Notes: generated by a model not told the origin, from the letters alone. A DNA stretch of 64,000 bases from an uncultured Chloroflexia bacterium (GCA_963814375.1 CAWFCQ010000007.1:96001-160000); one strand, 5' to 3'. Counted from the first letter of the stretch, positions 22,213 through 41,265 are shown. A program made the numbers and translations.

Positions 22213-23604
22213 TCATGTCCGCCCCAGCAGCTCGCCGGTGGGCTCGCGCTTCAGGAATCGGCCATCGCCCGCCGCGCCCAGCCACTCGTCGCCGTCGACG
22301 ACGACCTTGCCGCGTGACAGCACGATGTCGGCCCGACCGGTCACCTCGCGGCCCTCGTAGCACGAGTAGTCGACGTCCATGTGATGGGTCTTCGCACTGA
22401 TGATGTGCTTCGCCGTTGGGTCGTAGAGGACAAGGTCCGCATCGGCGCCGGCGGCAACGACGCCCTTTCGCCCGCCCAGGCCGAACATCCGGGCGGGTGC
22501 CGCGCTGATGAGCTCCACCCAGCGGTTGGGGGTCAGGTGCCCATCGACGACCCCGCCGGAGTGGAGCAGGTTGACACGGTCCTCCACGCCGGGAAGGCCG
22601 TTCGGCACCTTGCGGAAGTCGCCCTGCCCCAGGTCTTTCTGTCCGTGGAAGTCGAAGGGGCAGTGATCGGTCGAGACGACCTGGAGGTCGCCCTTGGCCA
22701 GGCCCTTCCACAGCTCGGGCGCATGGTCGGCCGGGCGCAGCGGCGGCGAGCAGACGAACTTCGCCCCCTCGAAGCCGTTGCCCATGTCCTCGAGGGTCAG
22801 GAAGAGGTACTGCGGGCACGTCTCGGCATAGGCGGGCAGGCCCTCGTCGCGCGCGCGGCGGACCTCCTCGAGCGCATCGGTCGCAGAGAGATGGACGATA
22901 TACACCGGGACGCCCGCCACCTGGGCCAGGCGAATCACCCGGTTGGTGGCCTCGCCCTCCATGACCGGCGAGCGGCTGACGCCGTGGAAGTACGGGTCGG
23001 TGTTGCCGGACTCGACGTTCTGGGCCGCCACGACGTCGATGGCCAGCCCGTTCTCGGCGTGCATCAGTATCAGGCCGCCGTTCCTGGCGGTCTGCTGCAT
23101 GGCACGGAAGATGGCGCCGTCATCGGAGAAGAAGACGCCGGGGTAGGCGGTGAAGAGCTTGAAGTCGGTCACGCCCTCGTCGACGAGCGCGTCCATCTCG
23201 GCGAGGGTGTCATCGGTGACGTCGGACATGATCATGTGGAAGCCGTAGTCGACGCAGGCCTTCCCCTCGGCCTTGGCGTGCCAGGCGTCCAGCCCCTCGC
23301 GCAGCGCCTGTCCCTTGCCCTGTACGGCAAAGTCGATGATCGTGGTGGTCCCGCCGAAGGCCGCGGCGCGCGTCCCGGTCTCGAACGTGTCCTTGGCGAA
23401 TGTCCCGCCGAACGGGAGCTCCATGTGGGTGTGCACGTCGATCGCGCCGGGGATCACCCACTTGTCGGACGCGTCGATGGTGCGATCGGCCGTGACGTCG
23501 AGCTCCTGGCCGATCAGCGCGATCCGCTCCCCGTCGACCAGGAGGTCGGCGGTGGTGGTGGCGTCGGCGTTGATGATCGTTCCGCCCTTGATGAGCGTGC
23601 GCAT
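22213..23604 (-). CDS. hydA: Dihydropyrimidinase
   Basis: PGAIDVHTHM, AAAFGGTTTIIDF, DYGFH, FKLFTAY (carboxylated Lys), MHAENG, VHLS, ETCPQY, SPPLR and STDHCPF. GGAGG RBS. Confidence 0.93.
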   Translation of the reverse strand: MRTLIKGGTIINADATTTADLLVDGERIALIGQELDVTADRTIDASDKWVIPGAIDVHTHMELPFGGTFAKDTFETGTRAAAFGGTTTIIDFAVQGKGQALREGLDAWHAKAEGKACVDYGFHMIMSDVTDDTLAEMDALVDEGVTDFKLFTAYPGVFFSDDGAIFRAMQQTARNGGLILMHAENGLAIDVVAAQNVESGNTDPYFHGVSRSPVMEGEATNRVIRLAQVAGVPVYIVHLSATDALEEVRRARDEGLPAYAETCPQYLFLTLEDMGNGFEGAKFVCSPPLRPADHAPELWKGLAKGDLQVVSTDHCPFDFHGQKDLGQGDFRKVPNGLPGVEDRVNLLHSGGVVDGHLTPNRWVELISAAPARMFGLGGRKGVVAAGADADLVLYDPTAKHIISAKTHHMDVDYSCYEGREVTGRADIVLSRGKVVVDGDEWLGAAGDGRFLKREPTGELLGRT

Positions 23605-23673
23605 CGGTTCCTCCGTCAACGGCTGAGCAGGACCGCAATCGTAGCCGCCCGGCGGCCCACTACGATGGCCGGC

Positions 23674-24495
23674 GTGAAGCTTGCCGAGCTGCCGCGGCCG
23701 GTCGAAACAGCGAGCATCGAACGTCTCATCAGGCCGGATGCGCCCGCCCGACCGCGCGCGCTGGCGGTGCTCGACGGCGTCCTCGCGGGTCGCGTCTGGG
23801 CGGATGATCCCGCGACCCCGACAGTCGCGCTCGTGATCGAGGACTCCGACGGGACGGTTTTCGCCGGCGGCTCACTGACCGCATCTCAGGTGGCCGACAC
23901 GCTCGCCGACGTCGAGACGGCATCTGGGGACCTCATCTTCGGGTTCGCGGACGGCGACGACGCGCTCCGCGGGATGTTGCCGAGGGAGCCGTACTGGACC
24001 GGCGAGGCGATCGACTTCACCGATCGCCGCCCACCGCCCGACGAGCCCGCAGGACCCGAGCCACCGCTCGAAGGGATGCAAATCGTGGCGCTCGACGCGT
24101 CCACCCTGCCCCTGACCGAGTGGTACCCAGACACCATGCACGCGTTCGGATCGATCGCGCGGTGGACCGAGCTTGGCATCGGCTTCGGCGTTCTCACTGG
24201 CGACGCGCTCGCGGCCGAGGCGACAGCGGGTCCACGCTGCCGCCGCCTCCTGGAGATGGGGGTGCTGACCCGCGAACCCTTCCGGCGGCGAGGGTACGGC
24301 ACGCTCGTCAGCCGCCTGGTAGCCCGTGAAGCCGAGTCCCGCGGCGACCGGGTCTGGTGGAACGCGAATGCCGTGAACGCACCCTCGTTGGCGATCGCTC
24401 GTCGGCTGGGGTTTCGGGCGGAGCGCCGATACGAGCTCGCCGCTTGCCATGCGGCAGGAAACACGCCCGGCGACGATCGATCGCTCGCGGGGTAG
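23674..24495 (+). CDS. GNAT family acetyltransferase
   Basis: C-terminal EMGVLTREPFRRRGYG and NAPSLAIARRLGF. TACGAT 7 nt upstream of the GTG. Confidence 0.8.
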   Translation: MKLAELPRPVETASIERLIRPDAPARPRALAVLDGVLAGRVWADDPATPTVALVIEDSDGTVFAGGSLTASQVADTLADVETASGDLIFGFADGDDALRGMLPREPYWTGEAIDFTDRRPPPDEPAGPEPPLEGMQIVALDASTLPLTEWYPDTMHAFGSIARWTELGIGFGVLTGDALAAEATAGPRCRRLLEMGVLTREPFRRRGYGTLVSRLVAREAESRGDRVWWNANAVNAPSLAIARRLGFRAERRYELAACHAAGNTPGDDRSLAG

Positions 24496-24505
24496 CATCA
24501 CCCGC

Positions 24506-25078
24506 ATGGCAGACGATCGACTCCACTTCACTGGCGACGACGAGGCGGACCGGCTCCTGGTGAGCGAGCCGATGGCGCTCCTCATCGGCTTCGCGCTCGA
24601 CCAGCAGGTGCCGGTTCAGTGGGCCTTCTCGGCGCCCAAGGTGCTCCTCCAGCGTCTCGGCACACTGGACGCTCGAGACATCGCCGCCATGGACGTCGCG
24701 GATGTCGAGGCCGCCTCCAAGGGCCCGCCCGCCGTCCACCGCTACCCGGCTGCCATGGGTCGGCGGGTTCACGAGCTGGCGAGCTATATCGCCGCCACCT
24801 ATGACGGCGACGCCGCCCGGGTCTGGACCGATGCCTCGGACGGCCGCGATCTCGAGCGGCGCATCGGGGCGCTACCGGGCTTCGGCGAGATGAAGGTCAA
24901 CGGGACGCTGGCAGTCCTGGCCAAGCGACTGGACGTACGACCTCCGGGAATCGACGAGGTGCTGCCTGACTGGCCGACGCTCGGCGATGTCGACTCCGCC
25001 GAGGCGCTGGCCGACTACCAGGCCAAGAAGCGCGCCCACAAGGCAGCCATGCGCGAGGCCGCAGCCGCCGAGGGCTGA
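24506..25078 (+). CDS. HhH-GPD superfamily base-excision DNA repair protein
   Basis: ALLIGFALDQQVPVQWAF, PAVHRYP, ALPGFGEMK (HhH) and DVDS. Confidence 0.85.
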   Translation: MADDRLHFTGDDEADRLLVSEPMALLIGFALDQQVPVQWAFSAPKVLLQRLGTLDARDIAAMDVADVEAASKGPPAVHRYPAAMGRRVHELASYIAATYDGDAARVWTDASDGRDLERRIGALPGFGEMKVNGTLAVLAKRLDVRPPGIDEVLPDWPTLGDVDSAEALADYQAKKRAHKAAMREAAAAEG

Positions 25079-25095
25079 TCCCAGTCACGAGGCCG

Positions 25096-25644
25096 TCAGG
25101 CCTGTCGCTCCGGCTCCGCGCCTCCCGCCCGCACCAGCAGGGCGCCGATCAGCCCCCCGGTCGTGTTCGTGATCACATCCGTCGTCTCCGGCCAGCGGCC
25201 GCCGCCGGTGAGCGCCTGGAGCAGCTCGATCGAGGCGGAGAAGGCGAGCGTGATCCCGACCGCCTGGAGGACGCTGACGGACGGGAAACGCCAGCGCAGG
25301 GCCATCCCGAACGGGATGAAGATGAGGACGTTTCCGATCAGCTCGGCGACGGCGAGGCGCAGGCTGCGCACGCCGATCAGCGCATCGCGCAGGTCTTCGA
25401 ACGGGATGAGCCTGATGCGTGGTGGCTCGTTCATGGCATCCACCGGGCTCAGCAGCGTCAGCACGACGATCAGCGCGATGGACGTCACGAGCGCGACGTC
25501 CCGCGCGGTCACGCCGAAGGCACGCGAGGGTGGATGAAGCACCAGCCTGACCACGAGAACGACGGCCCCCACCGCGGCGATCACGACGAAGATGCCGGCC
25601 ATCGTGCCGAGGGCATCGGCGGCCCACCGGATCAGCGCATCCAC
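25096..25644 (-). CDS. VanZ family membrane protein
   Basis: LIPF, GNVLIFIPFG, SASIELLQ and DVITNTTGG. Confidence 0.85.
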   Translation of the reverse strand: MDALIRWAADALGTMAGIFVVIAAVGAVVLVVRLVLHPPSRAFGVTARDVALVTSIALIVVLTLLSPVDAMNEPPRIRLIPFEDLRDALIGVRSLRLAVAELIGNVLIFIPFGMALRWRFPSVSVLQAVGITLAFSASIELLQALTGGGRWPETTDVITNTTGGLIGALLVRAGGAEPERQA

Positions 25645-25664
25645 GGCGCCAGTCTATCGGCGCC

Positions 25665-26153
25665 TCAGGAATCGGTGGCCGGCGCCTCCGGATGCTCGTG
25701 GTCGTGGTCGTGCTCGTCGTGGTCGTGCTCGTCGTGGTCGTGGTCGTGCATCCACGGCGTGAAGGTGATGCCGATCAGCAGCCCTTCCGGGCTGAGCAGC
25801 CGCGACGTCGTCTGGCCCCACGGCTCCTCCTGCGCGCCACGCAGCACGCGGTGCCCGGCAGCCTCGAGCTCCGCCACCGCCTCGCCGACTGCTTCCGCGG
25901 ACTCGACGTCGAGCTCCATCCAAGCCTGCGGCGCAGGGATGTCGGCCGGCCACTCCGCCGATCCGAACGTCGACTCCGCGGCCTGGGACAGCGGCCACAG
26001 CGCGAACGCGTTGACGCCTTCCAGGCTGTCGTTGGTTAGGTAGTCGGGAGCCGCCTCCTCGAGCGGGATGGCCAGGCCGTCGCCCCAGAACGCGCGCGAA
26101 GCATCGGCCTCGCGGACGATCGGTCCGAAGCCGGCGACGAACGCGACCCTCAT
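25665..26153 (-). CDS. VOC/glyoxalase family protein with His/Asp-rich tail
   Basis: VAGFGPIV, EEPWGQTTSRLLSPEGLLIG; tail HDHDHDEHDHDEHDHDHEH. Confidence 0.82.
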   Translation of the reverse strand: MRVAFVAGFGPIVREADASRAFWGDGLAIPLEEAAPDYLTNDSLEGVNAFALWPLSQAAESTFGSAEWPADIPAPQAWMELDVESAEAVGEAVAELEAAGHRVLRGAQEEPWGQTTSRLLSPEGLLIGITFTPWMHDHDHDEHDHDEHDHDHEHPEAPATDS

Positions 26154-26524
26154 GCGACCCGCTCCTTGGGAAGCGAGGAAAGGACGCAGAACTCGTTACC
26201 CTCCGGGTCCGCCATGACGACCCACGAGACGTCGCCTTGACCGATGTCGGCGCGCCTCGCCCCGAGCCGCTCCAGCCGTGCAACCTCGCCGTCCTGGTCG
26301 TCCGGCGCGAGGTCGAAGTGCCACCGGTTCTTGATCCCCTTCTCGTCCGGGTTGATCGCGAAGTACACCGGATGGATCCCCGGCCGGCGTTCCTCGTAGG
26401 GGGCGATCATCACGCCCTCCTCGTCTTCGGCGATGACCAGCCACCCGAGTGCGGTGGTCCAGAACTCGGCGAGCGCCTTCGGGTCATGGCAGTCGACTGT
26501 CAGGCTGTTGATGACAAGGCTCAT
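26150..26524 (-). CDS. VOC family protein (glyoxalase-like)
   Basis: VDCHDPKALAEFW, KNRWHFDL and WVVMADPEGNEFCVL. Confidence 0.88.
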   Translation of the reverse strand: MSLVINSLTVDCHDPKALAEFWTTALGWLVIAEDEEGVMIAPYEERRPGIHPVYFAINPDEKGIKNRWHFDLAPDDQDGEVARLERLGARRADIGQGDVSWVVMADPEGNEFCVLSSLPKERVA

Positions 26525-26707
26525 GCGCCGATGCTAGCGCCCTCAACCTGACGATTCGTGTCAGGAAAGTGCGCGGACCGAGGTCGATCGGCTGATTGAC
26601 TTTCACGCTCGTCCGCGGCGAGATCGACGTGGGTCGTCGCGTGGACCGGCTCGGCATTGCGCGGCAGGCGACTAAACGCTCCCGCGTCTGGCTAGAGGAC
26701 CACGCGG

Positions 26708-27154
26708 TCAGCACTGGCTGCCGTCGCCTTCGACCTCTCGCTTCAGCGTCGCCAGATCGTTGTCGGCGCGGGCGCGGATCCGTGGCGTGATCAGCGGGGT
26801 GAGCAGTTGCGTGAGGCCGCGCATACGCATGTCGGACTGATAGGTCAGCTCGGTCGCGCCGTCCCGGGCAGCGAGGTCGTAGCTGTCGATCTGGTCGCTG
26901 CCGGACGATGTGATGCGGACAGCCAGTCGCTCGCCGGGGCGTAGCTCGACGATCTCCGTCTCCACCTCGATGCGACGTCCCTCCGCCTCGATGATGTCGC
27001 GCGAGCGTGAGCCGACACGAACGCCGCCTTCGCCGATCGGCTCGGACCCGATGAAGCCGCTGATCCACCGACTCAGCCGGTCGGGCTCGACCAGCCACGG
27101 AAAGACGGTCGCTGGCGGCGCGCCGATCTCGACGCGGGACTCGATGCGGGGCAT
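26708..27154 (-). CDS. SRPBCC (START/Bet v1-like) family protein
   Basis: IGAPPATVFPWL...LSRW and C-terminal DLATLKREVE. GAGGAG RBS. Confidence 0.82.
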   Translation of the reverse strand: MPRIESRVEIGAPPATVFPWLVEPDRLSRWISGFIGSEPIGEGGVRVGSRSRDIIEAEGRRIEVETEIVELRPGERLAVRITSSGSDQIDSYDLAARDGATELTYQSDMRMRGLTQLLTPLITPRIRARADNDLATLKREVEGDGSQC

Positions 27155-27163
27155 GGAATCTCC

Positions 27164-28051
27164 TCAGGTGCGTTCGAGGACCGGGATCGCGATCTCGGTC
27201 TGGTTCAAGCGGCCGGCAGGATCGATCCGCGTGGTGTGATAGAGCTCGATGGCCGGCACGCCGACGATCTCGATTCGCGGGGCCATGGCCCGCAGCCGCT
27301 CAACGATCGACGCGTACGCCGAAGGGATCGACGCGTACGGGCCGATATGCGTGGTGATCGCGAACGTGCCGCCCTGGATTGCTTCGAATCCGATGCCGGA
27401 CTCATGGGCGGTGACGACTGGCTTGCGATGGACGACCAGGCCAGCGTCAAACCGGAGCTTGCTCGGATCGGTGATCTCCGGGGCGTCGTGGGCGATGCCC
27501 ACGAGGTGTCCGTCCGTTCCGGCGCCGAGCCGAGCGGCGGCGGCCGGCAGCTCGTCCCAGAGGCTGACGGGGACTGACTCGTAGGGACCGATGTATCGCA
27601 CGAAGAGGAGCTCAAGCGGGCGGAGCCGACGGACCCGCGTCTCGGAGAGGTGTCCGATGGCCAGCTCTTCCTCGAGCCCATCCTGCGCACGCGGGCGCCG
27701 TGGGTCAGGCGCGCGGCGCGTTGCCGTTGAGGCACGCCAACGACTCGGTGTCTGGCCGAACCGCCGGACGAAGGCCCGCGTGAAGGTCTCGTGGCTGGCG
27801 TAGCCGCACTCGAGCGCGATCTCGAGGATGGTTGCATCGCGAGTGACGAGCATCCTCGCCGCGCGCTCGAGGCGGAGCCGTTCCACGTGGCGGCGAGGCG
27901 ATTCCCCGGTGGCCGTCGCAAATCTCCGTGCGAAGTGGCTCGGGGATCGGTCGACCGTTGCGGCGAGCTCGGCGACGCTGAGCGTGGAGTCCAGGTTCGT
28001 CTGTGCATGGACGAGCGCCGGCAGGAGCCATCCAATCGAAGCCGCGTGCAT
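27164..28051 (-). CDS. AraC family regulator with GyrI-like ligand-binding domain
   Basis: SPSHFARRF, IALECGYASHETFTRAF; C-terminal YIGPY, HDAPEIT, HIGPY and TEIAIPV. Confidence 0.88.
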   Translation of the reverse strand: MHAASIGWLLPALVHAQTNLDSTLSVAELAATVDRSPSHFARRFATATGESPRRHVERLRLERAARMLVTRDATILEIALECGYASHETFTRAFVRRFGQTPSRWRASTATRRAPDPRRPRAQDGLEEELAIGHLSETRVRRLRPLELLFVRYIGPYESVPVSLWDELPAAAARLGAGTDGHLVGIAHDAPEITDPSKLRFDAGLVVHRKPVVTAHESGIGFEAIQGGTFAITTHIGPYASIPSAYASIVERLRAMAPRIEIVGVPAIELYHTTRIDPAGRLNQTEIAIPVLERT

Positions 28052-28100
28052 CGCCGCACCTTTGCATCGGAAGGCAGGACTGTCTTGACGTTTTCGGCTG

Positions 28101-29084
28101 TCAGTTGTCGATGATGGGCCCGTAGAGGTCGAGCTGCTCCTCTTCCTCGCCGTTCATCAGGTAAATGTTGAGCTGCGTGACGCCGACTTCGCGCAACTGC
28201 GCGAGGCGCTCGCGGTGCGCCGATGCCGGCCCGACGATCGCGAACTCATCGGTTATCTGGTCGGAAACGAATGCCGAGTTGTCGCTGCCGACCTCGGCGT
28301 GGTGCCGGTAGTCGTAGCCCTCGCGGCCCTCGACGTAGCGCCACAGCTCCTCGGGCAGGTCGTCCTTCGGGTATTTGTTGATGAGGTCGACCACGTGGTT
28401 GCTGACGAGCGCCGGAAACCATCGGACCTTGTCACGCGCCGCAGCGAGATCGTCGCTCACGTAAGCCGGCGCCGCGGCCATGACCTCGATCGCATCGGGG
28501 TCACGGCCGGCTTCGGTGGCGGCGGCACGAACGAAGCCCATGCACCAGCGGATGATGTCCGGATCTGCGAGCTGGAGGATGACCCCGTCCGCGACGCGGC
28601 CGGCGGCCGCGAGCGCCATCGGCCCGTAGCCGGCGACCCAGATCGGCACGGGGCCGTGCGTGGCCCAATCCATCTGGATCTCGGTGCCGTCGAGGTCCAC
28701 CTTCTCGCCCGCGGTCAGGGCGCGGATGACGCGGCAGCACTCTTCCATGTAGGCGACCGTCGTCGGCTTCTTGCCCATCACCCGCCGCGCTGAGTCGCCA
28801 CGGCCGATTCCCAGGTCCATCCGCCCGCCGGTTATCTCATTGAGCGTGGCCAGCGCGGACGCCGTCACCGTGACATCGCGTGTCGCCGGGTTCGTGACGC
28901 AGGTGCCCAGACGCATTCCCTCGGTTGCCGCGCCGATGAGCGTCAGGAGCGGGTACGGCTCGCGCCACAGCACGTGCGAGTCGAAGATCCAGCCGTGGCT
29001 GAAGCCGTTGGCCTCGGCGCGCTTCGCCAGGTCGACGCTGCGCTGGAAGTGGTGATCCGGCTTGAGCGTGATCCCGAACTTCAT
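28101..29084 (-). CDS. TIGR03842-type (CPS_4043 family) LLM-class F420-dependent oxidoreductase
   Basis: GWIFDSHVLWREPYP, GTCVTNPATRD, GIGRGDSARRVMG, WVAGYGPMAL, WFPALVSNHVVDL and GYDYRHHAEVG. These motifs match this Mer-related family, which typically sits beside hydA and nitrilase genes. Confidence 0.85.
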   Translation of the reverse strand: MKFGITLKPDHHFQRSVDLAKRAEANGFSHGWIFDSHVLWREPYPLLTLIGAATEGMRLGTCVTNPATRDVTVTASALATLNEITGGRMDLGIGRGDSARRVMGKKPTTVAYMEECCRVIRALTAGEKVDLDGTEIQMDWATHGPVPIWVAGYGPMALAAAGRVADGVILQLADPDIIRWCMGFVRAAATEAGRDPDAIEVMAAAPAYVSDDLAAARDKVRWFPALVSNHVVDLINKYPKDDLPEELWRYVEGREGYDYRHHAEVGSDNSAFVSDQITDEFAIVGPASAHRERLAQLREVGVTQLNIYLMNGEEEEQLDLYGPIIDN

Positions 29085-29125: not shown

Positions 29126-29336
29126 ATTCACACGATGCGGGCGTTACGCGGGCTCGCGAGCATTGAGCGGTCATGACAGCCCGCCAGTGCCCACCTGGTG
29201 TGAATCCAGGTGCGTTGGGCGGCGGCAACGCTCATTAGGCACATCTCGTGTGAATAGCGACGTTTCGGGCTGCATCCGTTGCGTTACGCACACCTCGTGT
29301 GAATCGGGCGCGTTTCGGCGAGCGATTGCGACGCAC
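29126..29336. repeat. Degenerate ~50-bp tandem repeat with one inverted copy
   Basis: Core CT[CG]GTGTGAAT ends at 29205, 29255 and 29304 (periods 50 and 49). Inverted ATTCACACGA at 29126-29135. Confidence 0.6.
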
Positions 29337-30185
29337 TCAGGGACGGACGAGGTCGTCGTAGGCATCGGGGCGACGGTCGCGGAAGAACTGCCACGTCTGG
29401 CGCACCTCCTCGATCGTGTCGAGGTCGAGGTCGCGGACGATCAGCTCTTCGTCGTGCGGGTCGCCGACGTCGCCGATGAACTGGCCGCGCGGATCGACGA
29501 AGTACGACTGGCCGTAGAAGTCGTCGTCGCCGAGCGGCTCGATGCCGACCCGGTTGATGGTGCCGACGTAGTAGCCGTTGGCGAGGGCGTGCGATACCTG
29601 CTCGACCCGCCACAGGTACTCCGACAGGCCGCGCGAGGTGGCCGACGGGATGAAGACCAGCTCGGCGCCGTTGAGGCCGAGTGCGCGCGCGCCCTCGGGG
29701 AAGTGGCGGTCGTAGCAGATGTAGACCCCGACCTTGCCGACAGCGGTGTCGAAGACGGGGTATCCCATGTTGCCGGGGCGGAAGTAGTACTTCTCCCAGA
29801 AGCCCTTGACGTGCGGGATGTGCGTCTTGCGGTACTTGCCGAGGTAGCTCCCATCGGCGTCGATGACCGCGGCGGTGTTGTAGTAGATGCCCGTGGTCTG
29901 GTCGTCCTCCTCGTACATCGGCACGATGAGGACCATCCCGGTCTCCTTCGCCAGCTCCTGCATCCGCTTCGTGGTCGGCCCATTAGGAATGTGCTCGGTG
30001 TACGAGAAGTACTGCGGGTCCTGGACCTGGCAGAAGTAGGGGCCGTAGAAGAGCTCCTGGAAGCACATCACCTTCGCGCCCTGCTCCGCCGCCTCGCGCG
30101 CGTACTTGATGTGCTTCTCGATCATCGACTCCTTGTCGCCGGTCCACTCCGCCTGGAGCAGCGCCGCGCGGACGATTCGCGCCAT
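29337..30185 (-). CDS. Nitrilase-superfamily C-N hydrolase, beta-ureidopropionase-like
   Basis: Catalytic triad contexts CFQELFYGPYFC, KYRKTHIP and YICYDRHFPE; FWEKYYFRPGN and DRRPDAY. Confidence 0.9.
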   Translation of the reverse strand: MARIVRAALLQAEWTGDKESMIEKHIKYAREAAEQGAKVMCFQELFYGPYFCQVQDPQYFSYTEHIPNGPTTKRMQELAKETGMVLIVPMYEEDDQTTGIYYNTAAVIDADGSYLGKYRKTHIPHVKGFWEKYYFRPGNMGYPVFDTAVGKVGVYICYDRHFPEGARALGLNGAELVFIPSATSRGLSEYLWRVEQVSHALANGYYVGTINRVGIEPLGDDDFYGQSYFVDPRGQFIGDVGDPHDEELIVRDLDLDTIEEVRQTWQFFRDRRPDAYDDLVRP

Positions 30186-30290
30186 CGGTTCCTCCATCCC
30201 GCCCGGAGGGCGGCATCGGTCTCACGGAAGGCCGATACAGTACACCGGCCCAACGCCCTCCCCGCGCCCAGCGGGTAGGCTTCACGGCCG

Positions 30291-33245: not shown

Positions 33246-34031
33246 ATGGAGCTCGGATTGCGCGGGCGCACCGCTGTCGTCGGTGGAGCCACCTCGGGAC
33301 TCGGACGCGCGTCCGCCGAGGCGCTCGCCGCCGAAGGGTGCGACCTCCTGATCTGGTCGCGGGACGCCGATCTGCTGGCCGCCACCGCCGATGAGCTCGG
33401 CGCGGCCCATGACGTTCGCGTGGAGCACATCGCGGCGGACGCGACTGATCCCGGCGCCGCCGAGTCGGTCGCATCGGCGGCCCTGTCAATGGCACCGATC
33501 GACATCGTGGTCCTCAACGCAGGCGGTCCGCCAACGGTCGACGTGACCGCGACAGACCGAGAGGGCTGGCAGCGCGCCTTCCAGCTCCTGGCCGCCACGC
33601 CCATCGAGCTCGCCACCGCGCTCCTGCCCGGGATGCGGGAGCGGCGGTGGGGCCGCGTCGTCTCGATCCTGTCGAGCGGCGTGCGCCAGCCGATCGGCGA
33701 CCTCGTGTACTCGAACGCCGGCCGGTCCGCGCTGGCGGCATGGCTGAAGACGACGGCGCGGGCGATCGCCGCCGAGGGCGTGACGGTCAACGGCGTCATG
33801 CCCGGCCGCATCGCCACGCCCCGCATCCACGAGCTCGACTCCGGTCGAGCCGATCGTGAGGGGACTACCGAGGACGCGGTCCGCGAGGGTCACCTTCGCA
33901 CGATCCCGGCCGCGCGTTACGGGAGGCCGGAGGAGCTCGGCGCCCTCGTCGCCTTCCTCGCATCCGAGCGCGCCTCGTACATCACCGGCCAGCTGGTGGC
34001 GGTCGATGGGGGCCTCATCGCCGGCCTGTAG
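33246..34031 (+). CDS. Short-chain dehydrogenase/reductase
   Basis: GGATSGLG, VLNAGGPP, SNAGR and GVTVNGVMPG. Confidence 0.88.
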   Translation: MELGLRGRTAVVGGATSGLGRASAEALAAEGCDLLIWSRDADLLAATADELGAAHDVRVEHIAADATDPGAAESVASAALSMAPIDIVVLNAGGPPTVDVTATDREGWQRAFQLLAATPIELATALLPGMRERRWGRVVSILSSGVRQPIGDLVYSNAGRSALAAWLKTTARAIAAEGVTVNGVMPGRIATPRIHELDSGRADREGTTEDAVREGHLRTIPAARYGRPEELGALVAFLASERASYITGQLVAVDGGLIAGL

Positions 34032-34041
34032 GATGGCGGCC

Positions 34042-35421
34042 ATGGACGAGCGGGCGGCCGCGATGCGGCGCGCGGCCGAGATCGGCCTCGCCTTCCTGGA
34101 AGGACTCGACGAGCGTCACGTCGGCGCCACGGCCGACGCCGCCGAGATTCGCGCCAGGCTCGGCGGCCCGTTGCCGGAGGCCGGGACCGATCCGATCGCC
34201 CTGGTCGAGGAGCTGACCACCGCGCTCGATCCCGGGCTGATCGGATCCGCCGGACCGCGCTACTTCGGCTTCGTCGTCGGCGGCGCCCTGCCGGCGGCGG
34301 CCGCAACCGACTGGCTGACGACGGCATGGGGCCAGAACGCGGCGCTCCACGCCCTGTCGCCGGCGGCGGCTGCGGCGGAGGAGGTGGCGGGTCGCTGGAT
34401 GCTCGAGCTGCTCGGTCTGCCGGCCGACGCGAGCTTCGGCCTTCCCACCGGCGCCGGCATCGGCAACGCGGTCGGTCTGGCTGCCGGTCGCCATGCAGTG
34501 CTCGCCAAGGCTGGCTGGGACGTCGAGGCCAACGGCCTGTACGGGGCGCCCGAGATCACCGTGATCGTGGGCGAGGAGGCGCACGCGACGCTGCTCACCG
34601 CGCTCCAGTACCTGGGCCTCGGGCGCGATCGCGTCGTGCGCGTGCCCGCCGACGACCAGGGCCGCATGGACCTGCCCGCGGCCCGCGTCGCGATCGAGGC
34701 TGCGGGCGATGGCCCGCTGATCGTGGCCTCGCAGGCCGGCAACGTGAACACCGGCGCGTTCGATCCGATCGGGGGCCTGGCCGAGACGCTCGGCGACCAT
34801 CCGAACGCCTGGCTCCACGTCGACGGCGCGTTCGGGCTGTGGGCGGCGGTCTCCCCCGAGCTGCGCCCGATGGTGGCCGGCGTCGAACGCGCCGACTCCT
34901 GGTCGACCGATGCCCACAAGTGGCTCAACGTCGGCTACGACTGCGGGTTCGTCGCCGTCCGGGATGCCGCCGCGCACCGCGCCGCCATGTCGATGACCGC
35001 CTCGTATCTCATGCGCAGCGAGCAGCGCGAGAACTGGGAGTGGGTCATGGACAGCTCGCGAAGGGCGCGCGGGTTCGTCCTCTACGCCGCGATCCGCTCG
35101 CTGGGTCGCGACGGCGTTCAGGCCCTGGTCGAGCGCTGCTGCGCCCTTGCGCGCCGCATCGCGGATCGGCTCCGTGAGGCCGATGGCGTCGAGGTGCTCA
35201 ACGACGTCGTCCTCAACCAGGTCCTGGTCCGCTTCGGCGACGACGACCGCACGCGGGCCGTCATCAGCGGTGTCCAGGCCGAGGGCACAGCCTGGATGGG
35301 CGGCACGACCTGGCAGGGCCGGGCGGCGATGCGGATCAGCGTGAGCAACTGGTCGACAACGGAGGCCGATGCTGATCGGACGGTGGACTCGATCCTGCGC
35401 TGCGCCCGCGCCGAGGGCTGA
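34042..35421 (+). CDS. PLP-dependent group II amino-acid decarboxylase
   Basis: PRYFGFV, AGNVNTGAFDP, WLHVDGAFG, DSWSTDAHKWL (PLP Lys) and RISVSNW. Confidence 0.88.
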   Translation: MDERAAAMRRAAEIGLAFLEGLDERHVGATADAAEIRARLGGPLPEAGTDPIALVEELTTALDPGLIGSAGPRYFGFVVGGALPAAAATDWLTTAWGQNAALHALSPAAAAAEEVAGRWMLELLGLPADASFGLPTGAGIGNAVGLAAGRHAVLAKAGWDVEANGLYGAPEITVIVGEEAHATLLTALQYLGLGRDRVVRVPADDQGRMDLPAARVAIEAAGDGPLIVASQAGNVNTGAFDPIGGLAETLGDHPNAWLHVDGAFGLWAAVSPELRPMVAGVERADSWSTDAHKWLNVGYDCGFVAVRDAAAHRAAMSMTASYLMRSEQRENWEWVMDSSRRARGFVLYAAIRSLGRDGVQALVERCCALARRIADRLREADGVEVLNDVVLNQVLVRFGDDDRTRAVISGVQAEGTAWMGGTTWQGRAAMRISVSNWSTTEADADRTVDSILRCARAEG

Positions 35422-35423: not shown

Positions 35424-35822
35424 TCAGGCCTCCTCGATCCAGCCCGTGGCCTCCTCCTGGCGATCTCGGCCACCGAAGTCCTCGCGCACCCACGCCATGA
35501 GCCGCGCGGGTCCGAGCGCAATGGCCAGGCAGGCTCCGATCATGAGCAGCGGCCCGAGCATGCCCTCCGCGTGAGCTCGCGGCAGCACGGCCGCCCAGAT
35601 GGCGGTACCCGCCAGGGCTGCGACCTCGGTGCGTCCGAGGCGGAGTGCGACGAGCATCAGCGCCGATGGGATCGCCAGCCATCCCTCCGGCTGCCCGGCT
35701 ACGAGGGCCATCACCCCGGCCATGCCCCCGACGCCGACTGTCAGCCCGAGAACGGCGCGAGTCAGCGCTGATACCTCGTCCGAGGCATCGCGGCGCCTCG
35801 CGGAGAGTGCGGCCCAGACCAT
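35424..35822 (-). CDS. Hypothetical membrane protein (about 4 TM)
   Basis: Hydrophobic 132-aa ORF that fills the gap. TAGACT about 9 nt upstream of the ATG. Confidence 0.6.
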   Translation of the reverse strand: MVWAALSARRRDASDEVSALTRAVLGLTVGVGGMAGVMALVAGQPEGWLAIPSALMLVALRLGRTEVAALAGTAIWAAVLPRAHAEGMLGPLLMIGACLAIALGPARLMAWVREDFGGRDRQEEATGWIEEA

Positions 35823-36113
35823 GAGGGAACGAGTCTACGACCGTGGCGTCGCGGGATCCACGCCCCGCATACGCCCGGCGTACCGACCAATCTCCGCCTG
35901 GACGCCCGTTCGGGCGCCGAGTGCTCGCTCCAGCGGGCACCGATGAGCACGAATGGCGCGTCCGCGCGCCCGTCAGGCGTCCCAGCGCTCGCTCCAGCGC
36001 GCGAACGCCTCCGGACAAGGCATGGCGCGAAGGACGCCCGGTCAAGCGAGCGGCAGCGAGGGCTACCGACGGTGTGCTGTAATCGGTCCACCAAATACGG
36101 AGCTGAGGGCCGG

Positions 36114-37448
36114 ATGGCGATCGAGACCGAGCGAGGGGCGATGACGGGCGACGAGATCGTCGCGCTCACCAAGCGCCACACCCTGTTCGAGTGGTCGGCG
36201 CAGTCCAAGGTCGATCCCATCCCGGTGGCCGGCGCGAAGGGGGTCTACTTCTGGACGCCCGAGGGCAAGCGGTTCCTCGACTTCAACTCGCAGCTGATGT
36301 GCACGAACATCGGCCACGGGCATCCGAAGGTGATCGCCGCCATCCAGGCGCAGGCCGAGCAGCTGGCCTACGCGAACCCGTTCATGGCCACCGAGCCGCG
36401 GGCGCGCCTTGGACAGAAGCTGGCCGAGATCACGCCCGGCGACATCGACACCTTCTTCTTCACCAACGGCGGCGCAGAGGCGAACGAGAACGCGATCAAG
36501 CTGGCCCGATTCGTCACCGGCCGCCACAAGATCCTGACGCGCTACCGCTCGTACCACGGCGGCACGGCCGGCGCCATCAGCCTGACCGGCGACCCGCGCC
36601 GCTGGGCTGCCGAGCCGGGCATCCCCGGCGTGGTGCGCGTGCTCGACCCGTATCACGGCATCCAGCGCGGCTGGGACACCGCCGACGAGGCCCTCGCGAA
36701 CCTGGAGGAGACGATCCAGCTCGAGGGGCCGAACACGATCGCCGCCTTCATCCTCGAGACTGTCACCGGCACGAACGGCATCCTCGTTCCGCCGGACGGC
36801 TACATCGCCGGCGTGCGCGAGATCTGCGATCGCTACGGGATCATGATGATCGCCGACGAGGTGATGGCCGGCTTCGGGCGCACCGGCAAATGGTTCGCGG
36901 TCGATCACTGGGACGTGGTTCCCGACCTGATCACCATGGCCAAGGGCCTCACCAGCGCCTATGTCCAGCTCGGCGCCCTCGGCATGCGACGCAAGTACGC
37001 CGAGCACTTCACCGACAAGGTCTTCTACGGCGGCCTGACCTACAACTCGCACCCGCTGGCGTGTGCGACGGCCCTTGCCACGATCGCCGTCTACGAGGAG
37101 GAGAACCTCATCGAGCGCGCGGCGCAGATGGGCGAGGTGCTGAAGCAGCACCTATCGACGCTGGCCGACCGGCACCCGAGCATCGGCGCGACGCGCAGCA
37201 TCGGCCTCTTCGGCATCGTCGAGCTGGTCCGCGATCGAACCACCATGGAGCCGATGGCGCCCTTCAACGGCACATCGGACGAGATGGCGGCACTGGGCAG
37301 GAGATTCCGCGAGGAGGGCCTCTACACCTTCGTGCGCTGGAACACGTTCTTCACCAACCCGCCGCTCATCATCACGGAAGAGGAGATGGCCGAGGGCTTC
37401 GCGATCATTGATCGCGCCCTCGAGGCGACCGATGCCGCCGTCGGCTGA
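36114..37448 (+). CDS. Class III (omega-amino acid) aminotransferase, probable beta-alanine aminotransferase
   Basis: FLDFNSQLMCTNIGH, FFTNGGAEANENA, SYHGGT, IADEVMAGFGRTG, PDLITMAKGL and GLTYNSHP. Confidence 0.88.
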   Translation: MAIETERGAMTGDEIVALTKRHTLFEWSAQSKVDPIPVAGAKGVYFWTPEGKRFLDFNSQLMCTNIGHGHPKVIAAIQAQAEQLAYANPFMATEPRARLGQKLAEITPGDIDTFFFTNGGAEANENAIKLARFVTGRHKILTRYRSYHGGTAGAISLTGDPRRWAAEPGIPGVVRVLDPYHGIQRGWDTADEALANLEETIQLEGPNTIAAFILETVTGTNGILVPPDGYIAGVREICDRYGIMMIADEVMAGFGRTGKWFAVDHWDVVPDLITMAKGLTSAYVQLGALGMRRKYAEHFTDKVFYGGLTYNSHPLACATALATIAVYEEENLIERAAQMGEVLKQHLSTLADRHPSIGATRSIGLFGIVELVRDRTTMEPMAPFNGTSDEMAALGRRFREEGLYTFVRWNTFFTNPPLIITEEEMAEGFAIIDRALEATDAAVG

Positions 37449-38304
37449 GCGCCACGGCTGGCCCCGGCGCACGGCCACCTTCGTGGCCTTCGTCGTTCTC
37501 GCCCTCCTCGTCTGGGAGGTTCTGAAGTTCATCGGCGGCGATCCGTGGCGCTACTTCGGCTGGGAATGGCATCCGCCGCTCGAGATCTGGTTCGCCACCG
37601 ACCTTCGGCTGCCGCACGTGTGGGAGATCGGCGGAGCGCTGGTGAACCCGGTCCAGCGCAGCGCGGACGAGAGCCTGGCCCAGTTTCTGGCAGGCGCTGC
37701 CTTCTACACCTGGCGTGAGGCCGCGATCGGCTTCATCGCCGGAACCGTCATCGGCATCTCACTGGCCGCCGTCTTCGTGCACTCTGGCGTGCTCGAGCGC
37801 GCGTTCGTTCCCTACGTGATTGTCAGCCAGACGATCCCGATCGTGGCGCTCGCGCCGATGATCGTCTTCGCGTTCGGCCAGGACGTGACGAGCGTGGTCA
37901 TCATCGCCACCTACCTGACCTTCTTCCCGGTCACGATCGCGATGATCCGCGGCCTGCGGTCGCCGGATCCGCGCGCCCTCGAGCTCATGCGCAGCTACGC
38001 GGCGTCGAAGTGGAGCATCTTCTGGAAGCTGCGCATGCCCGCCTCGCTGCCGTATCTCTTCACCGCTCTGAAGATCGCGGCGACCGCCAGCATCGTCGGT
38101 GCGATCGTCGGTGAAGGGCCCGGTGGCATCCCCGATGGGCTGGGCCGCGCGATCATCAACTTCAACAACCAGTACGTGTCGGGCCCGGAGAAGCTGTGGG
38201 CCGCGATCGTCGCCACGGCCGTGCTCGGCATCGTCTTCTTCAGCCTCGTTCGACTGACGGAGGCGGCCGTTCTCCGCGGCCGCCCGACGGTGGGCGATGG
38301 ATAA
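37432..38304 (+). CDS. ABC importer permease (NitT/TauT type)
   Basis: SQTIPIVALAP and EAA-like ELMRSYAASKWSIFWKLRMPASLPYLF. Confidence 0.88.
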   Translation: MPPSAERHGWPRRTATFVAFVVLALLVWEVLKFIGGDPWRYFGWEWHPPLEIWFATDLRLPHVWEIGGALVNPVQRSADESLAQFLAGAAFYTWREAAIGFIAGTVIGISLAAVFVHSGVLERAFVPYVIVSQTIPIVALAPMIVFAFGQDVTSVVIIATYLTFFPVTIAMIRGLRSPDPRALELMRSYAASKWSIFWKLRMPASLPYLFTALKIAATASIVGAIVGEGPGGIPDGLGRAIINFNNQYVSGPEKLWAAIVATAVLGIVFFSLVRLTEAAVLRGRPTVGDG

Positions 38305-39148
38305 CAGCACGGCAAAGCTCGACCCCGGGGCAAGCGTCGTCCGAGTCGACGGCGCGGGCAAGACCTTCGCATCGCACGGTGAGAAGGGCCGGACGACCGC
38401 GCTGGAAGGCATCGACCTGGACATCCGCCGCGGCGAGTTCGTCAGCCTGATCGGTCCGTCCGGATGCGGGAAAAGCACCCTGCTGCGCCTTATCGGCGAC
38501 CTGACGGCTCCCACCGCTGGGATCGTGAGCGTCAACGGCAAGGGCGCCCACGAGGCGCGATTGGGTCGCGAGTACGGCATCGTCTTTCAAGCTCCGGTCC
38601 TGTTCGAATGGCGGACCGTCGAGGACAACGTGAAGCTGCCGCTCGAGCTGATCGGCATGGAACGCCGTGGGCGCCAAGCGCGGGCGCGCGAGCTGCTGGA
38701 GCTGGTGGAGCTCGGCGACTTCATGCGGCACTACCCCTACCAGCTCTCGGGCGGGATGCAGCAACGTGTCGCCATCGCCCGCGCGCTTGCCCTGGAGCCG
38801 GCGCTTCTGCTGATGGACGAGCCGTTCGGCGCGCTCGACGAGATGACGCGTGAGCGGATGAACAGCGAGGTGCTGCGGATCTGGCGGCAGACCGGGACCA
38901 CGATCGTCTTCGTGACCCACTCGATCCCGGAGGCGGTCTTCCTGTCGACGCGGGTGGCGGTCATGAGCGCTCGCCCCGGACGCATCACGCACCTGGTCGA
39001 GGTCGATCTGCCGCAGCCCCGCAACGAGCTTACCCGCGAGGAACCGCGCTACTTCGAGCTCGTGACCGAGGTGCGCGAAGCCCTGCGCGGCAGAGGGCCC
39101 TCCGGCGCATCGGTCGAGCGGATGGCGGCCGAGGGCGGGATCGGCTGA
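38297..39148 (+). CDS. ABC importer ATP-binding subunit (NitT/TauT type)
   Basis: GPSGCGKST, LSGGMQQRV, LLMDEPFGALD and VTHSIPEAVFLS. Confidence 0.92.
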   Translation: MDNSTAKLDPGASVVRVDGAGKTFASHGEKGRTTALEGIDLDIRRGEFVSLIGPSGCGKSTLLRLIGDLTAPTAGIVSVNGKGAHEARLGREYGIVFQAPVLFEWRTVEDNVKLPLELIGMERRGRQARARELLELVELGDFMRHYPYQLSGGMQQRVAIARALALEPALLLMDEPFGALDEMTRERMNSEVLRIWRQTGTTIVFVTHSIPEAVFLSTRVAVMSARPGRITHLVEVDLPQPRNELTREEPRYFELVTEVREALRGRGPSGASVERMAAEGGIG

Positions 39149-39161
39149 TGGCGGCAGCCGG

Positions 39162-40001
39162 ATGATCGCCTCCCCGGACGCGGGGCCGGCACCCGGCCTC
39201 CCCCGCCGGCTCGGCGCGCGCCTCGGCTACTACCTGCCGGCCGTGCTCGTGCTCGTCGGTGGGCTCCTCGTGTGGGAGGTACTGACCCGGGTGCTCAGCG
39301 TCCGCGCATTCATCCTTCCGCCGCCGAGCGCCATCGGGTCGGCACTCGGGGAGAACTGGAGCGGTGGCACATGGTCACTCGCGCCCTCGGTCATCGCCAC
39401 GCTGACCGAAGCGATCGGTGGCCTGATCATCGGCACGGTCACCGGGGTCGCCGTCGGCTTTGCCGTGGCGCGTTGGGCCACAGCGCGGGAGTCGGTCCTG
39501 CCCATTGCCATCGCGGCCAACGCGATCCCGATCATCGCCATCGCGCCGATCTTCAACAACTGGTTCGGGGTCCTCAACCCGCTCTCGAAGATGATGATGG
39601 CGGCGCTCCTCGTCTTCTTCCCCGTGATGATCAACGTGACCCGCGGCCTCTCGCAGGTTGAGCCGGCGGCACTCGAGCTGATGCGGGCGTATGCCGCATC
39701 CGAGTGGACGGTGCTGGCGAAGGTCCGCGTCCCGAACGCCCTCCCGTACTTCCTGACTGCCCTCAAGGTCGCCACCACCCTCAGCTTGATCGGCGCCGTG
39801 GTGGGCGAGTACTTCGGCGGCACCACCCAGGTCATCGGGCGGGTGGTGGTGCAGAGCGCGAGCGCGCTGCGCTTCGACGTCACCTGGGCCGCGATCCTGC
39901 TCATGGCGATCGCCGGGGTCATCATGTACGTGGCGGTGCTCGTCATCGAGCGGCTGCTGATTCCATGGCATCCGTCACTTCGGGCGCACGATCACTCCTG
40001 A
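39162..40001 (+). CDS. ABC importer permease (NitT/TauT type)
   Basis: ILPPPSAI, IPIIAIAP and KVRVPNALPYF. Confidence 0.88.
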   Translation: MIASPDAGPAPGLPRRLGARLGYYLPAVLVLVGGLLVWEVLTRVLSVRAFILPPPSAIGSALGENWSGGTWSLAPSVIATLTEAIGGLIIGTVTGVAVGFAVARWATARESVLPIAIAANAIPIIAIAPIFNNWFGVLNPLSKMMMAALLVFFPVMINVTRGLSQVEPAALELMRAYAASEWTVLAKVRVPNALPYFLTALKVATTLSLIGAVVGEYFGGTTQVIGRVVVQSASALRFDVTWAAILLMAIAGVIMYVAVLVIERLLIPWHPSLRAHDHS

Positions 40002-40122
40002 CCGCACGCGGGTGGGCTCGATTCGCCAGCCGCCGTCGCACCGGCTCCGTAGAATGCGCGGATCAGATGAGCGGGTGTGGCGCAGCCGCCCCGCGCCCCT
40101 TTCCGGAAGCGAGGTCCGAGGG

Positions 40123-41265
40123 ATGAAGGTAACGCGCGCGTGGCCGGTGCTGGCCGCGGTCCTCACGCTGGTCCTGTCAGCGTGCCAGGCGGGAGATGGG
40201 GGCGAGAGCAGCGATGGGGGTGATGCCGAGCTGGACACCGTTCGCCTCCAGCTCCAGTGGGTGCCGCAGGCTCAGTTCGGCGGCTATTTCGCGGCGCAGG
40301 AGCTCGGCTACTACGAGGATGAGGGCCTCGACGTCGAACTCGTCGACGGCGGGCCTGAGGTGATCCCGCAGCAGGTGGGTTCGGCGGCAGACGGCCCGGA
40401 GTTCACGATCAGCTGGGTGCCCAAGGTGCTCCAGGCGCGCCTGGAGGAGTCCGACCTCGTCAACATCGCCCAGATCTTCCAGCGGGCCGGCACGCTCTCC
40501 GTCGCGTGGGCCGACTCGGGCATCGCGTCACCGGAGGACTTTGCCGACAAGAAGGTCGGCGTCTGGGACTTCGGCAACGAGCTGGAAGTCGTGGCCTCCG
40601 CCCGATTGGCAGGACTCGAGCCGGGCGAGGACTTCGAGGTCGTCATCCAGCCCTTCGACATGACGCTCCTCCTCAATGCCGTCGAGGGCTGCGAGGCGAG
40701 CGCCAGCGACTGCGTCGATGTTGCGGAGGCGATGATCTACAACGAGTACGCTCAGCTGCTCGAGACCGAGAATCCCGACACCGGCGAGCTCTACCAGCCC
40801 GATGACTTGAACGTCATCGACTACAACGAGGTCGGCACGGCGATGCTCCAGGACGCGCTCTTCGCGCGCGCCGACTGGCTTGCCCAGGAGGGCAACGAGG
40901 ACATCGCCGTCCGCTTCCTGCGGGCGTCGTTCCGCGGCTGGATCCACTGCCGTGACAACCCCGACGACTGCGTCCAGTACGTGACCGACGCCGGATCGAC
41001 GCTCGGCGCTGGGCACCAGGCTTGGATGATGAATGAGATCAACGCCCTCATCTGGCCTTCACCCAACAGCATCGGCGTCATGGACCCCGAGCTGTGGGCC
41101 CAGACCGTCGAGACCGCCATCGAGGCCGAGATCATCCCGGAGGCGCCGCCAGACGATGCCTACCGTACGGATCTGGCCGAGCAGGCGCTGGAGGGAATCG
41201 AGGAGGACACGACCGGGGAGGACTTCCAGAAGGAAGCCGTGGAGGTCACACCGGGCGGCGAATAA
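40123..41265 (+). CDS. ABC importer substrate-binding lipoprotein (NMT1/THI5-like)
   Basis: Lipobox LSAC, LQLQWVPQAQFGGYF, AMIYNE and HQAWMMNE. This SBP type binds pyrimidine-like ligands. TAGAAT promoter element at 40050. Confidence 0.85.
   Translation: MKVTRAWPVLAAVLTLVLSACQAGDGGESSDGGDAELDTVRLQLQWVPQAQFGGYFAAQELGYYEDEGLDVELVDGGPEVIPQQVGSAADGPEFTISWVPKVLQARLEESDLVNIAQIFQRAGTLSVAWADSGIASPEDFADKKVGVWDFGNELEVVASARLAGLEPGEDFEVVIQPFDMTLLLNAVEGCEASASDCVDVAEAMIYNEYAQLLETENPDTGELYQPDDLNVIDYNEVGTAMLQDALFARADWLAQEGNEDIAVRFLRASFRGWIHCRDNPDDCVQYVTDAGSTLGAGHQAWMMNEINALIWPSPNSIGVMDPELWAQTVETAIEAEIIPEAPPDDAYRTDLAEQALEGIEEDTTGEDFQKEAVEVTPGGE

Follow-up and report, generated by a model that had tools for sequence, protein, structure and literature searches.

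The window analysed here is a 64,000-nucleotide stretch of DNA from an uncultured Chloroflexia bacterium, and the system in question is a set of putative pyrimidine-catabolism genes that includes a luciferase-like (LLM) oxidoreductase of the TIGR03842 family. The window comes from a soil member of Chloroflexota, of the lineage Candidatus Limnocylindria; the source assembly measures 2.5 Mb and is 89% complete, and the G+C content of the window is 66-73%. We picked genes by third-position G+C and then scanned them against NCBIfam and Pfam. The initial annotation had named a dihydropyrimidinase (DHP), a nitrilase, an LLM reductase, a class III aminotransferase and an ATP-binding cassette (ABC) importer, and the profile scans recovered all of them, with the same coordinates within start-codon choice (Table 1). 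As it had also reported, the LLM gene lies just downstream of the nitrilase gene, on the same strand and with a gap of 252 nt, and the F420 biosynthesis genes cofD, cofC and cofE are nearby (14860-17281, minus strand), all three over their model cut-offs.

Table 1. Genes of the window considered in this study (positions counted from the first nucleotide of the window)
Feature	Position	Strand	Basis
cofE	14860-15612	-	over model cut-off
cofC	15609-16250	-	over model cut-off
cofD	16247-17281	-	over model cut-off
Dihydropyrimidinase / D-hydantoinase (PydB)	22213-23619	-	TIGR02033, 554.6 bits (cut-off 393.25)
TIGR03842-family LLM oxidoreductase, proposed F420H2-dependent uracil/thymine reductase	28101-29084	-	TIGR03842, 420.9 bits (cut-off 295.45)
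CN-hydrolase (nitrilase superfamily), proposed N-carbamoyl-beta-amino acid amidohydrolase (PydC role)	29337-30197	-	PF00795, 222 bits
Class III (omega) aminotransferase, proposed beta-alanine/beta-aminoisobutyrate aminotransferase (PydD role)	35943-37448	+	NF004718, 562.9 bits (cut-off 472)
NitT/TauT-type ABC importer, whole	37408-41265	+	profile matches, four genes
Importer permease	37408-38304	+	profile match
Importer ATPase	38297-39148	+	profile match
Importer second permease	39162-40001	+	profile match
Importer binding protein	40012-41265	+	NMT1/THI5 PF09084, 91 bits
PntB and PntA transhydrogenase	47769-50670	-	6.5 kb from importer

To place the LLM gene in its genomic context, we compared the window with 53 loci from close relatives, whose LLM proteins are 59-89% identical to that of the window and whose genes were named by tblastn with the window's own proteins. 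At least 1.2 kb of sequence upstream of the LLM gene was available in 44 loci, and 42 of these have the nitrilase gene there, within 1.5 kb and on the LLM strand. The downstream flank reached 9.9 kb or more in 26 loci, all of which contain DHP; of the full set of 53, 37 do. We then surveyed an even sample of 301 Chloroflexota genomes; these include kin and are not independent, and counts are given without a p-value. TIGR03842 was over cut-off in 42 genomes. A TIGR02033 match at E<=1e-100, taken as a DHP-positive call, was present in 109. The initial annotation had proposed profiling genomes for co-occurrence with hydA, and DHP was indeed present in all 42 LLM-positive genomes. In 36 of them, from nine of the ten families concerned, it lay within 6 kb of the LLM gene on the same contig (distances read by hand from coordinate tables); in the other six (G024, G070, G074, G115, G124 and G221) the two genes were on different contigs. 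The tallies of DHP, cofD and SsnA take in four genomes flagged as unpublished (G145, G227, G173 and G038), none of which is LLM-positive.

The arrangement is more compact in some loci than in the window. In L073, DHP-LLM-nitrilase stands back to back with aminotransferase-permease-ATPase-permease-binding protein, and in L060 importer-aminotransferase stands back to back with nitrilase-LLM-DHP. The order is importer-LLM-DHP in L079 and L080, nitrilase-LLM-DHP in L075 and L076, the latter followed by the aminotransferase, and LLM-nitrilase-DHP with the aminotransferase nearby in L077. The four-gene importer is directly beside the LLM gene in L060, L073, L079 and L080, and the aminotransferase adjoins the nitrilase, LLM and DHP genes in the compact clusters L060, L073, L076 and L077. 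The grouping of the LLM gene with pathway genes is far beyond chance. Since such compact clusters occur in more distant families, the window shows, in loosened form, a cluster that is tight and widespread elsewhere. Separately, five contigs of metagenome-assembled genomes labelled Steroidobacteraceae, Binatia and Zixiibacteriota (L019, L022, L027, L049 and L061) carry LLM genes 81-88% identical to those of Limnocylindria, with the same neighbours, and are probably mis-binned Chloroflexota contigs.

Sixty-seven DHP-positive Chloroflexota genomes have no LLM gene, and 64 of these also have no PreA. We considered them as counter-evidence and rejected them as such, because those DHPs belong to other pathways. 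A hand tally found an SsnA-type match in 50 of the 67, and the annotated DHP neighbourhoods in LLM-negative genomes hold a Mo-hydroxylase and PALP, or AllG and PurL, or transporters. The neighbourhoods of the SsnA-bearing genomes fit the reductive uric-acid pathway of PMC12507026, where HyuA is a TIGR02033-type hydantoinase.

The LLM protein aligns with positions 1-323 of the 329 in the TIGR03842 profile. The NCBIfam family is large: it comprises 491 representative clusters at a threshold of E<=1e-30, and its near relatives number over 8000; among the 120 relatives listed, the closest homologues of the window protein are all at least 84% identical to it. We modeled its structure with AlphaFold2 (predicted local distance difference test, pLDDT, 95.3; predicted template-modeling score, pTM, 0.92), and the model predicts a luciferase-like (beta/alpha)8 barrel. 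Foldseek placed LLM barrels on top, with F420 enzymes throughout ranks 1-19, the best being Mer with F420 (8qpl, template-modeling score 0.79-0.81). Searching solved relatives by sequence gave Mer (1f07, E 6.8e-36), then FGD2, FGD1 and Adf, before any flavin mononucleotide (FMN) enzyme. Mer, the F420-dependent methylene-tetrahydromethanopterin reductase (1f07, 1z69, 8qpl), is therefore the closest solved relative in both sequence and fold, with full-length alignment, and the LLM protein probably binds F420 as Mer does.

Unlike Mer, which belongs to a C1-metabolism context, the LLM gene sits among genes of pyrimidine catabolism. Both Mer models scored under their cut-offs, NF002619 at 168.7 bits (cut-off 276) and TIGR03555 at 151.6 bits (cut-off 348.7). 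Glu6 is given as the catalytic residue of Mer in PMC11094777 (jMer numbering), and the window residue aligned with Glu6 of 1f07 is Thr6. Of the 61 relatives that share 55% identity or more with the window protein, 59 have Thr in this column; the 21 more distant ones (40-55% identity) have chiefly Val (8), Thr (7) or Cys (3), with Ser next, and Glu falls outside the five commonest residues in every identity bin. Judged from these scores and alignments, the window LLM protein is not a Mer. Position C of jMer (Gln178) was also mapped, to Gln171 in the window protein and to Asn in the aligned Mer chains, and no claim was drawn from it. A second LLM copy in one genome (G261) was set aside as evidence, its contig (L068) being too short and its neighbour a PAS histidine kinase gene.

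The DHP of the window has a D-hydantoinase (1k1d, 494 bits) as its nearest solved structure. The best NCBIfam match of the CN-hydrolase is AguB, at 268 bits and under the cut-off of 410, and among solved structures it comes closest to N-carbamoylputrescine amidohydrolase (5h8i, 204.6 bits), followed by the beta-ureidopropionases 2vhh (184) and 6ftq (168). This would place it in the N-carbamoyl-amine branch, and we propose the PydC role for it, although no model dedicated to that role was matched over cut-off. The aminotransferase matches a model that NCBI names 'hypothetical protein' (NF004718), and taurine:2-oxoglutarate aminotransferase (6jix, 389.9 bits) is its nearest solved structure. Its true start is probably near 36114, since the profile match begins at residue 63 of the open reading frame. 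The nearest solved relatives of both enzymes appear to fit the downstream steps of the pathway.

Another TIGR02033 match in the source genome (G000:C4:311372-312736; L088 8373-9737) is barely over the cut-off, at 404.7 bits, and its neighbours are urate oxidase, OHCU decarboxylase and hydroxyisourate (HIU) hydrolase. With such neighbours we rejected it as an extra Pyd cluster; the protein probably acts as an allantoinase, and the TIGR02033 model would therefore over-call dihydropyrimidinase. Between the nitrilase and aminotransferase genes, at 33856-35421, lies a gene whose product is a PLP-dependent decarboxylase (PF00282) and weakly matches the diaminobutyrate and PanP aspartate decarboxylases. 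The gene recurs beside the nitrilase gene in the Limnocylindria loci L043, L045, L052 and L084, and a link with beta-alanine metabolism is possible.

Dihydropyrimidine dehydrogenases (DPD) occur as the fused PydA/DPD, which uses NADPH, and as PreT-PreA of E. coli, which uses NADH. They share with the LLM enzyme the proposed reaction, the pathway and the place in the cluster beside PydB and PydC. They differ from it in build: they combine a DHO_dh TIM barrel with FMN, FAD and 4Fe-4S centers, whereas the LLM protein is a luciferase-like barrel without Fe-S or pyridine-nucleotide domain, and its donor would be F420H2. The initial annotation had noted that the window contains no PreT/PreA, and this extends to the 89%-complete assembly: the PreA model gave nothing over cut-off there (best 29.6 bits), and tblastn with three Chloroflexota DPD/PreA proteins found two GltD-like genes on contig C3 only, the DHO_dh half being unmatched.

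PreA was over cut-off in seven of the 301 Chloroflexota genomes. In three LLM-negative genomes (G211, G077 and G044) it adjoins DHP. The order in G077 is aminotransferase-nitrilase-...-PreA-DHP, with a nitrilase 60% and an aminotransferase 47% identical to those of the window; by sequence, this is the same cluster with PreA in the place of the LLM gene. Conversely, none of the LLM-bearing loci searched had a DPD/PreA match at E<=1e-10, so that the routine sharing of clusters with preTA, which the initial annotation had named as evidence against its proposal, was not seen. PreA was also not over cut-off in 38 of the 42 LLM-positive Chloroflexota genomes, nor in any of five LLM-positive Acidobacteriota. 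The anti-correlation with preTA expected at the genome level failed, with PreA in 4 of 42 LLM-positive versus 3 of 259 LLM-negative genomes. Therefore, the replacement is strict for the cluster and not for the genome.

The four LLM-positive genomes with PreA/DPD (G079, G221, G245 and G253) come from one family. G253 encodes a full DPD of 967 aa (Fer4_20, Pyr_redox_2, DHO_dh and Fer4_21; L074 6659-9562) with unrelated neighbours, and its sole TIGR02033 match adjoins the LLM gene, not the DPD gene. G221 encodes a fused DPD of 878 aa with the same domains (L083 7136-9772), adjoined by DHP. We built a quick maximum-likelihood tree of 31 DHPs, with support from the Shimodaira-Hasegawa-like approximate likelihood-ratio test (SH-aLRT), in which the DPD-adjoining DHP of G221 nests in the LLM-linked Limnocylindria DHP clade (13 rows, SH-aLRT 100). 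The LLM-linked hydrolases would therefore be ordinary dihydropyrimidinases. As an observation in itself, the fused DPDs of G253 and G221 are of the animal type and occur, in one Limnocylindria family, alongside the LLM cluster.

The association extends to other phyla. In Acidobacteriota, the LLM gene was found in 4 of 131 genomes, and G342 was added to give five LLM-positive genomes. All five have exactly one DHP, within 3 kb of the LLM gene in four, and cofD is over cut-off in four; in the fifth, G341, it is split. There (G341:C1:543614-544521) cofD consists of two pieces that overlap, with a TGA in frame, owing either to a frameshift or to faulty assembly. Plasmid p1 of Streptomyces sp. BHT-5-2 carries a nitrilase (68% identity), an aminotransferase and then DHP (61%) directly before the LLM gene (47%). 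On plasmids of Leisingera and Paracoccus alcaliphilus, the LLM gene is the last of cofG-cofH-cofD-cofC-cofE-npdG-LLM. The plasmid of Leisingera caerulea (NZ_CP081074.1; L108/L109 context) has this operon back to back with a divergent one headed by pntA-pntB and continuing with a class III aminotransferase, a Zn-dependent carbamoylase-type hydrolase, hydA and an NCS1 nucleobase permease. The LLM-DHP link thus persists in Leisingera although the carbamoylase and transporter types are unrelated. On the Paracoccus plasmid, an ABC importer follows the LLM gene.

These plasmid cofGHDCE-npdG-LLM operons are the strongest evidence for F420. Matches among the three cof genes of the window score 255.1 on TIGR01916 (cut-off 180.65), 314.2 on TIGR01819 (cut-off 257.45) and 143.1 on TIGR03552 (cut-off 105), and relatives share the synteny of these genes with the DHP side of the block. 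Co-occurrence with cof genes, which the initial annotation had also proposed to examine, was complete: cofD is present in 191 of the 301 Chloroflexota genomes, including all 42 that are LLM-positive, and the LLM gene is present in none of the 110 cofD-negative genomes. The LLM enzyme very probably uses F420, as far as its sequence and gene context allow a judgement. All sampled genomes of f1, f2 and f3 also have cofD, despite scarce FO synthase. Because FO synthase was not found in the lineage, its F420 supply would depend on FO taken up externally, and Ca. Limnocylindria may build F420 from scavenged FO. The PntAB transhydrogenase of the window might, by analogy and with little weight, supply NADPH. 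Beside cofD, at 17396-18743, lie two more genes of F420 type, an LLM gene with 231.2 bits on TIGR03560 (cut-off 231.4) and a gene for a PPOX-class protein with 76.6 bits on TIGR03618 (cut-off 79.05); the pair is syntenic in relatives.

A literature search, outside whose range lay subscription journals and supplements, found no mention of TIGR03842, no published account of its reaction and none of a luciferase-like enzyme paired with dihydropyrimidinase; the initial annotation had likewise regarded this reaction as not biochemically established. Within the same limits, only two near precedents were found. According to PMC10714638, reduction of the uracil ring of mureidomycin at C5-C6 genetically requires a putative F420/FMN oxidoreductase, SSGG-03002/NpsU. 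This protein resembles the proposed LLM enzyme in its described role, uracil-ring C5-C6 reduction, while the fold family is unnamed in that text; it differs in that its substrate is a nucleoside-antibiotic intermediate of secondary metabolism, and the in vitro assay reported there failed. The other precedent is the F420 'luciferase-family' yanthine reductase suggested for Chloroflexota, from gene neighbourhood only, in PMC12507026. As proposed here, an F420 LLM enzyme would stand in place of a PydA-like or YgfK-like reductase before a cyclic amidohydrolase; unlike here, the pathway is that of a purine, uric acid, and includes SsnA.

Matches of the SsnA type come from other families of Chloroflexota, with none in f1-f3. 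In five loci (L101-L105, from G043, G258, G076, G184 and G031), an SsnA-type gene lies 1-3 kb from cofE-cofD-cofC, followed by a Mer-like LLM gene whose product scores 173-175 bits on the Mer model and 85-87 on TIGR03842. L101, the only SsnA locus annotated there, has a gene for an SsuA-type binding protein after the Mer-like LLM gene. This Mer-like LLM protein is probably the 'luciferase-family' candidate of PMC12507026, and its proximity to cof genes could explain its presence in that neighbourhood analysis.

Taken together, we consider it probable, on the strength of gene content and context, that the window encodes a reductive pyrimidine (Pyd-type) catabolism in which the TIGR03842 LLM enzyme, with F420H2, would carry out the ring-reducing step in place of the Fe-S flavoenzyme PydA/PreTA. 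In this respect, comparative gene context supports the F420H2-dependent uracil/thymine reductase of the initial annotation, and its replacement of the first step stands for the cluster and fails for the genome. Gene identity and linkage are what we observed; from the gene context, we infer the following steps. The NMT1-type ABC importer would take up uracil or thymine. The LLM enzyme would pass the C5 hydride of F420H2 to C6 of the imported base, whose own C5 would be protonated, and so give 5,6-dihydrouracil or 5,6-dihydrothymine, whose ring would be opened by dihydropyrimidinase. The CN-hydrolase would then remove the carbamoyl group as CO2 and NH3, and the class III aminotransferase would take the remaining nitrogen from beta-alanine or beta-aminoisobutyrate. 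F420 would be completed by the nearby cofD-cofC-cofE. In the lineage of the window, a compact ancestral cluster, as seen in related families, may have been split by insertions of unrelated genes.

Several points weigh against this reading. The pathway genes of the window are not one operon and are spread over 19 kb among unrelated genes: GNAT, VanZ, a glyoxalase-like gene, an SRPBCC protein and an AraC regulator between DHP and LLM, and a MarP protease, an AAA-like protein, a K+ channel, an SDR and the PLP decarboxylase between nitrilase and aminotransferase. FO synthase (CofG, CofH) was not found in the 89%-complete assembly, and CofH was found in none of 21 family genomes and only 2 of 61 class genomes. 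No Fgd or Fno was over cut-off in the assembly, the best scores being 181 (cut-off 420) and 92 (cut-off 149.8) bits. On the Paracoccus alcaliphilus plasmid, there is no DHP within 9 kb of the LLM gene. Given the DPD in four LLM-positive genomes, the LLM enzyme sometimes has a second candidate reductase beside it, and where both occur their substrates may differ. Characterised F420-dependent LLM enzymes act mostly on alcohols, aldehydes, imines and nitroaromatics, and the reduction of an enone-like C=C bond by this fold is our inference. Finally, our search found no published biochemical or genetic test of any TIGR03842 member.

We weighed three other explanations. The LLM enzyme could have the same ring-reducing role on another substrate, a modified pyrimidine or other uracil-like heterocycle, with DPD handling uracil and thymine where both occur. 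NMT1/THI5-type binding proteins are best known for substituted pyrimidines of thiamine metabolism, and the binding protein of the importer is of this type. The coexistence of full DPD and LLM cluster in 4 of 42 genomes points the same way, as does the proposal of a different Chloroflexota F420 luciferase-family enzyme as a 2,8-dioxopurine reductase (PMC12507026). However, no further candidate for a uracil reductase is present in the remaining 38 LLM-positive genomes, the downstream enzymes are of the kinds that the formation and removal of beta-alanine or beta-aminoisobutyrate would call for, and the DPD-linked DHP nests among LLM-linked ones. The Leisingera version, moreover, has a nucleobase permease, and SsnA was found neither in the source genome (best 69 bits) nor in families f1-f3. 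We therefore regard a different substrate as unlikely.

It is quite improbable, in our view, that the enzyme acts downstream, as an F420H2-dependent malonic/methylmalonic semialdehyde reductase or another aldehyde/alcohol oxidoreductase, with dihydropyrimidines imported or supplied by an unrecognised enzyme. The relatives of the LLM protein do include Adf, an alcohol/aldehyde dehydrogenase, and the sugar-phosphate dehydrogenases FGD, and the aminotransferase is often in the LLM cluster; the extended Pyd pathway, attributed to Yin et al. in 2019, reportedly terminates with a semialdehyde reductase. But the LLM gene is tied most closely and most persistently to DHP, not to the aminotransferase, and L079 and L080 have no aminotransferase or nitrilase match in the stretch fetched. 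A downstream role would also leave the pathway of 38 of the 42 genomes without a step-one enzyme, and PreA fills the equivalent slot in canonical clusters. Least credible, and barely worth entertaining on the present evidence, is a merely incidental linkage to DHP of a protein that would be either a methylene-tetrahydropterin reductase of the Mer type or a RutA-like monooxygenase dependent on FMN. Mer is the closest characterised family, at 168.7 bits, E 6.8e-36 (1f07) and a template-modeling score of about 0.8. RutA is an FMN- and O2-dependent enzyme of the LLM fold, like the window protein, and also acts on uracil; it cleaves the ring directly, and Rut pathways need no dihydropyrimidinase. 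Against Mer stand the sub-threshold model scores and Thr6 in place of the catalytic Glu6. RutA (TIGR03612, cut-off 498.3) was absent among the best 25 of 27 LLM family matches, of which the weakest listed had 29.5 bits. The RutA-like FMN enzyme, which the initial annotation had raised as a way to be wrong, is likewise unsupported by the 19 best folds, all F420 enzymes, and by the alphaproteobacterial gene that closes a cofGHDCE-npdG operon. A linkage over four phyla is not incidental.

Two features of the noncoding sequence were rejected as signals of the pathway. A motif search for a shared operator upstream of the nitrilase, LLM, DHP and aminotransferase genes gave noise only in this sequence of 70% G+C. 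The gap between the nitrilase and LLM genes (29126-29304) contains a repeat of 21-24 nt, with the rough consensus ACGCMCACCTSGTGTGAAT, in three direct copies, at spacings of 50 and 49 nt, plus an inverted one; it was discarded because it is an intergenic repeat found genome-wide. It has 3 matches in the window versus 0.11 expected, and 0 in 105 other loci. When up to 4 substitutions are allowed, 37 matches are present in the source genome, grouped at about 12 intergenic sites. Many lie just past a gene end, paired either at 50 nt or, in inverted orientation, at about 111 nt. By these features, it looks like a genome-specific repeat of the repetitive extragenic palindromic (REP) kind.

Going beyond the window, we lean slightly towards a general form of the F420H2-dependent uracil/thymine reductase proposal: TIGR03842 proteins would be F420H2-dependent dihydropyrimidine dehydrogenases, a third unrelated route to the first step. 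This would be the first housekeeping catabolic role of F420 in Chloroflexota, Acidobacteriota and Alphaproteobacteria, whose whole F420 operons may mainly serve the LLM enzyme, and the Limnocylindria pathway would also rely on FO scavenged from neighbours, with cofC, cofD and cofE kept and FO synthase missing. If this is true, a function would be at hand for a large family that NCBI still labels a hypothetical equivalog, along with an oxygen-tolerant, Fe-S-free uracil reductase for the biocatalysis of dihydropyrimidines and beta-amino acids. The annotation of abundant soil Chloroflexota, whose pyrimidine pathway otherwise seems incomplete, would be corrected. A 2021 review of F420 leaves its role in Proteobacteria and Chloroflexi unanswered, and the word uracil is absent from it (PMC8498797). 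Our proposal, if true, would answer the question as posed there and provide the long-sought everyday job of F420 in Chloroflexota.

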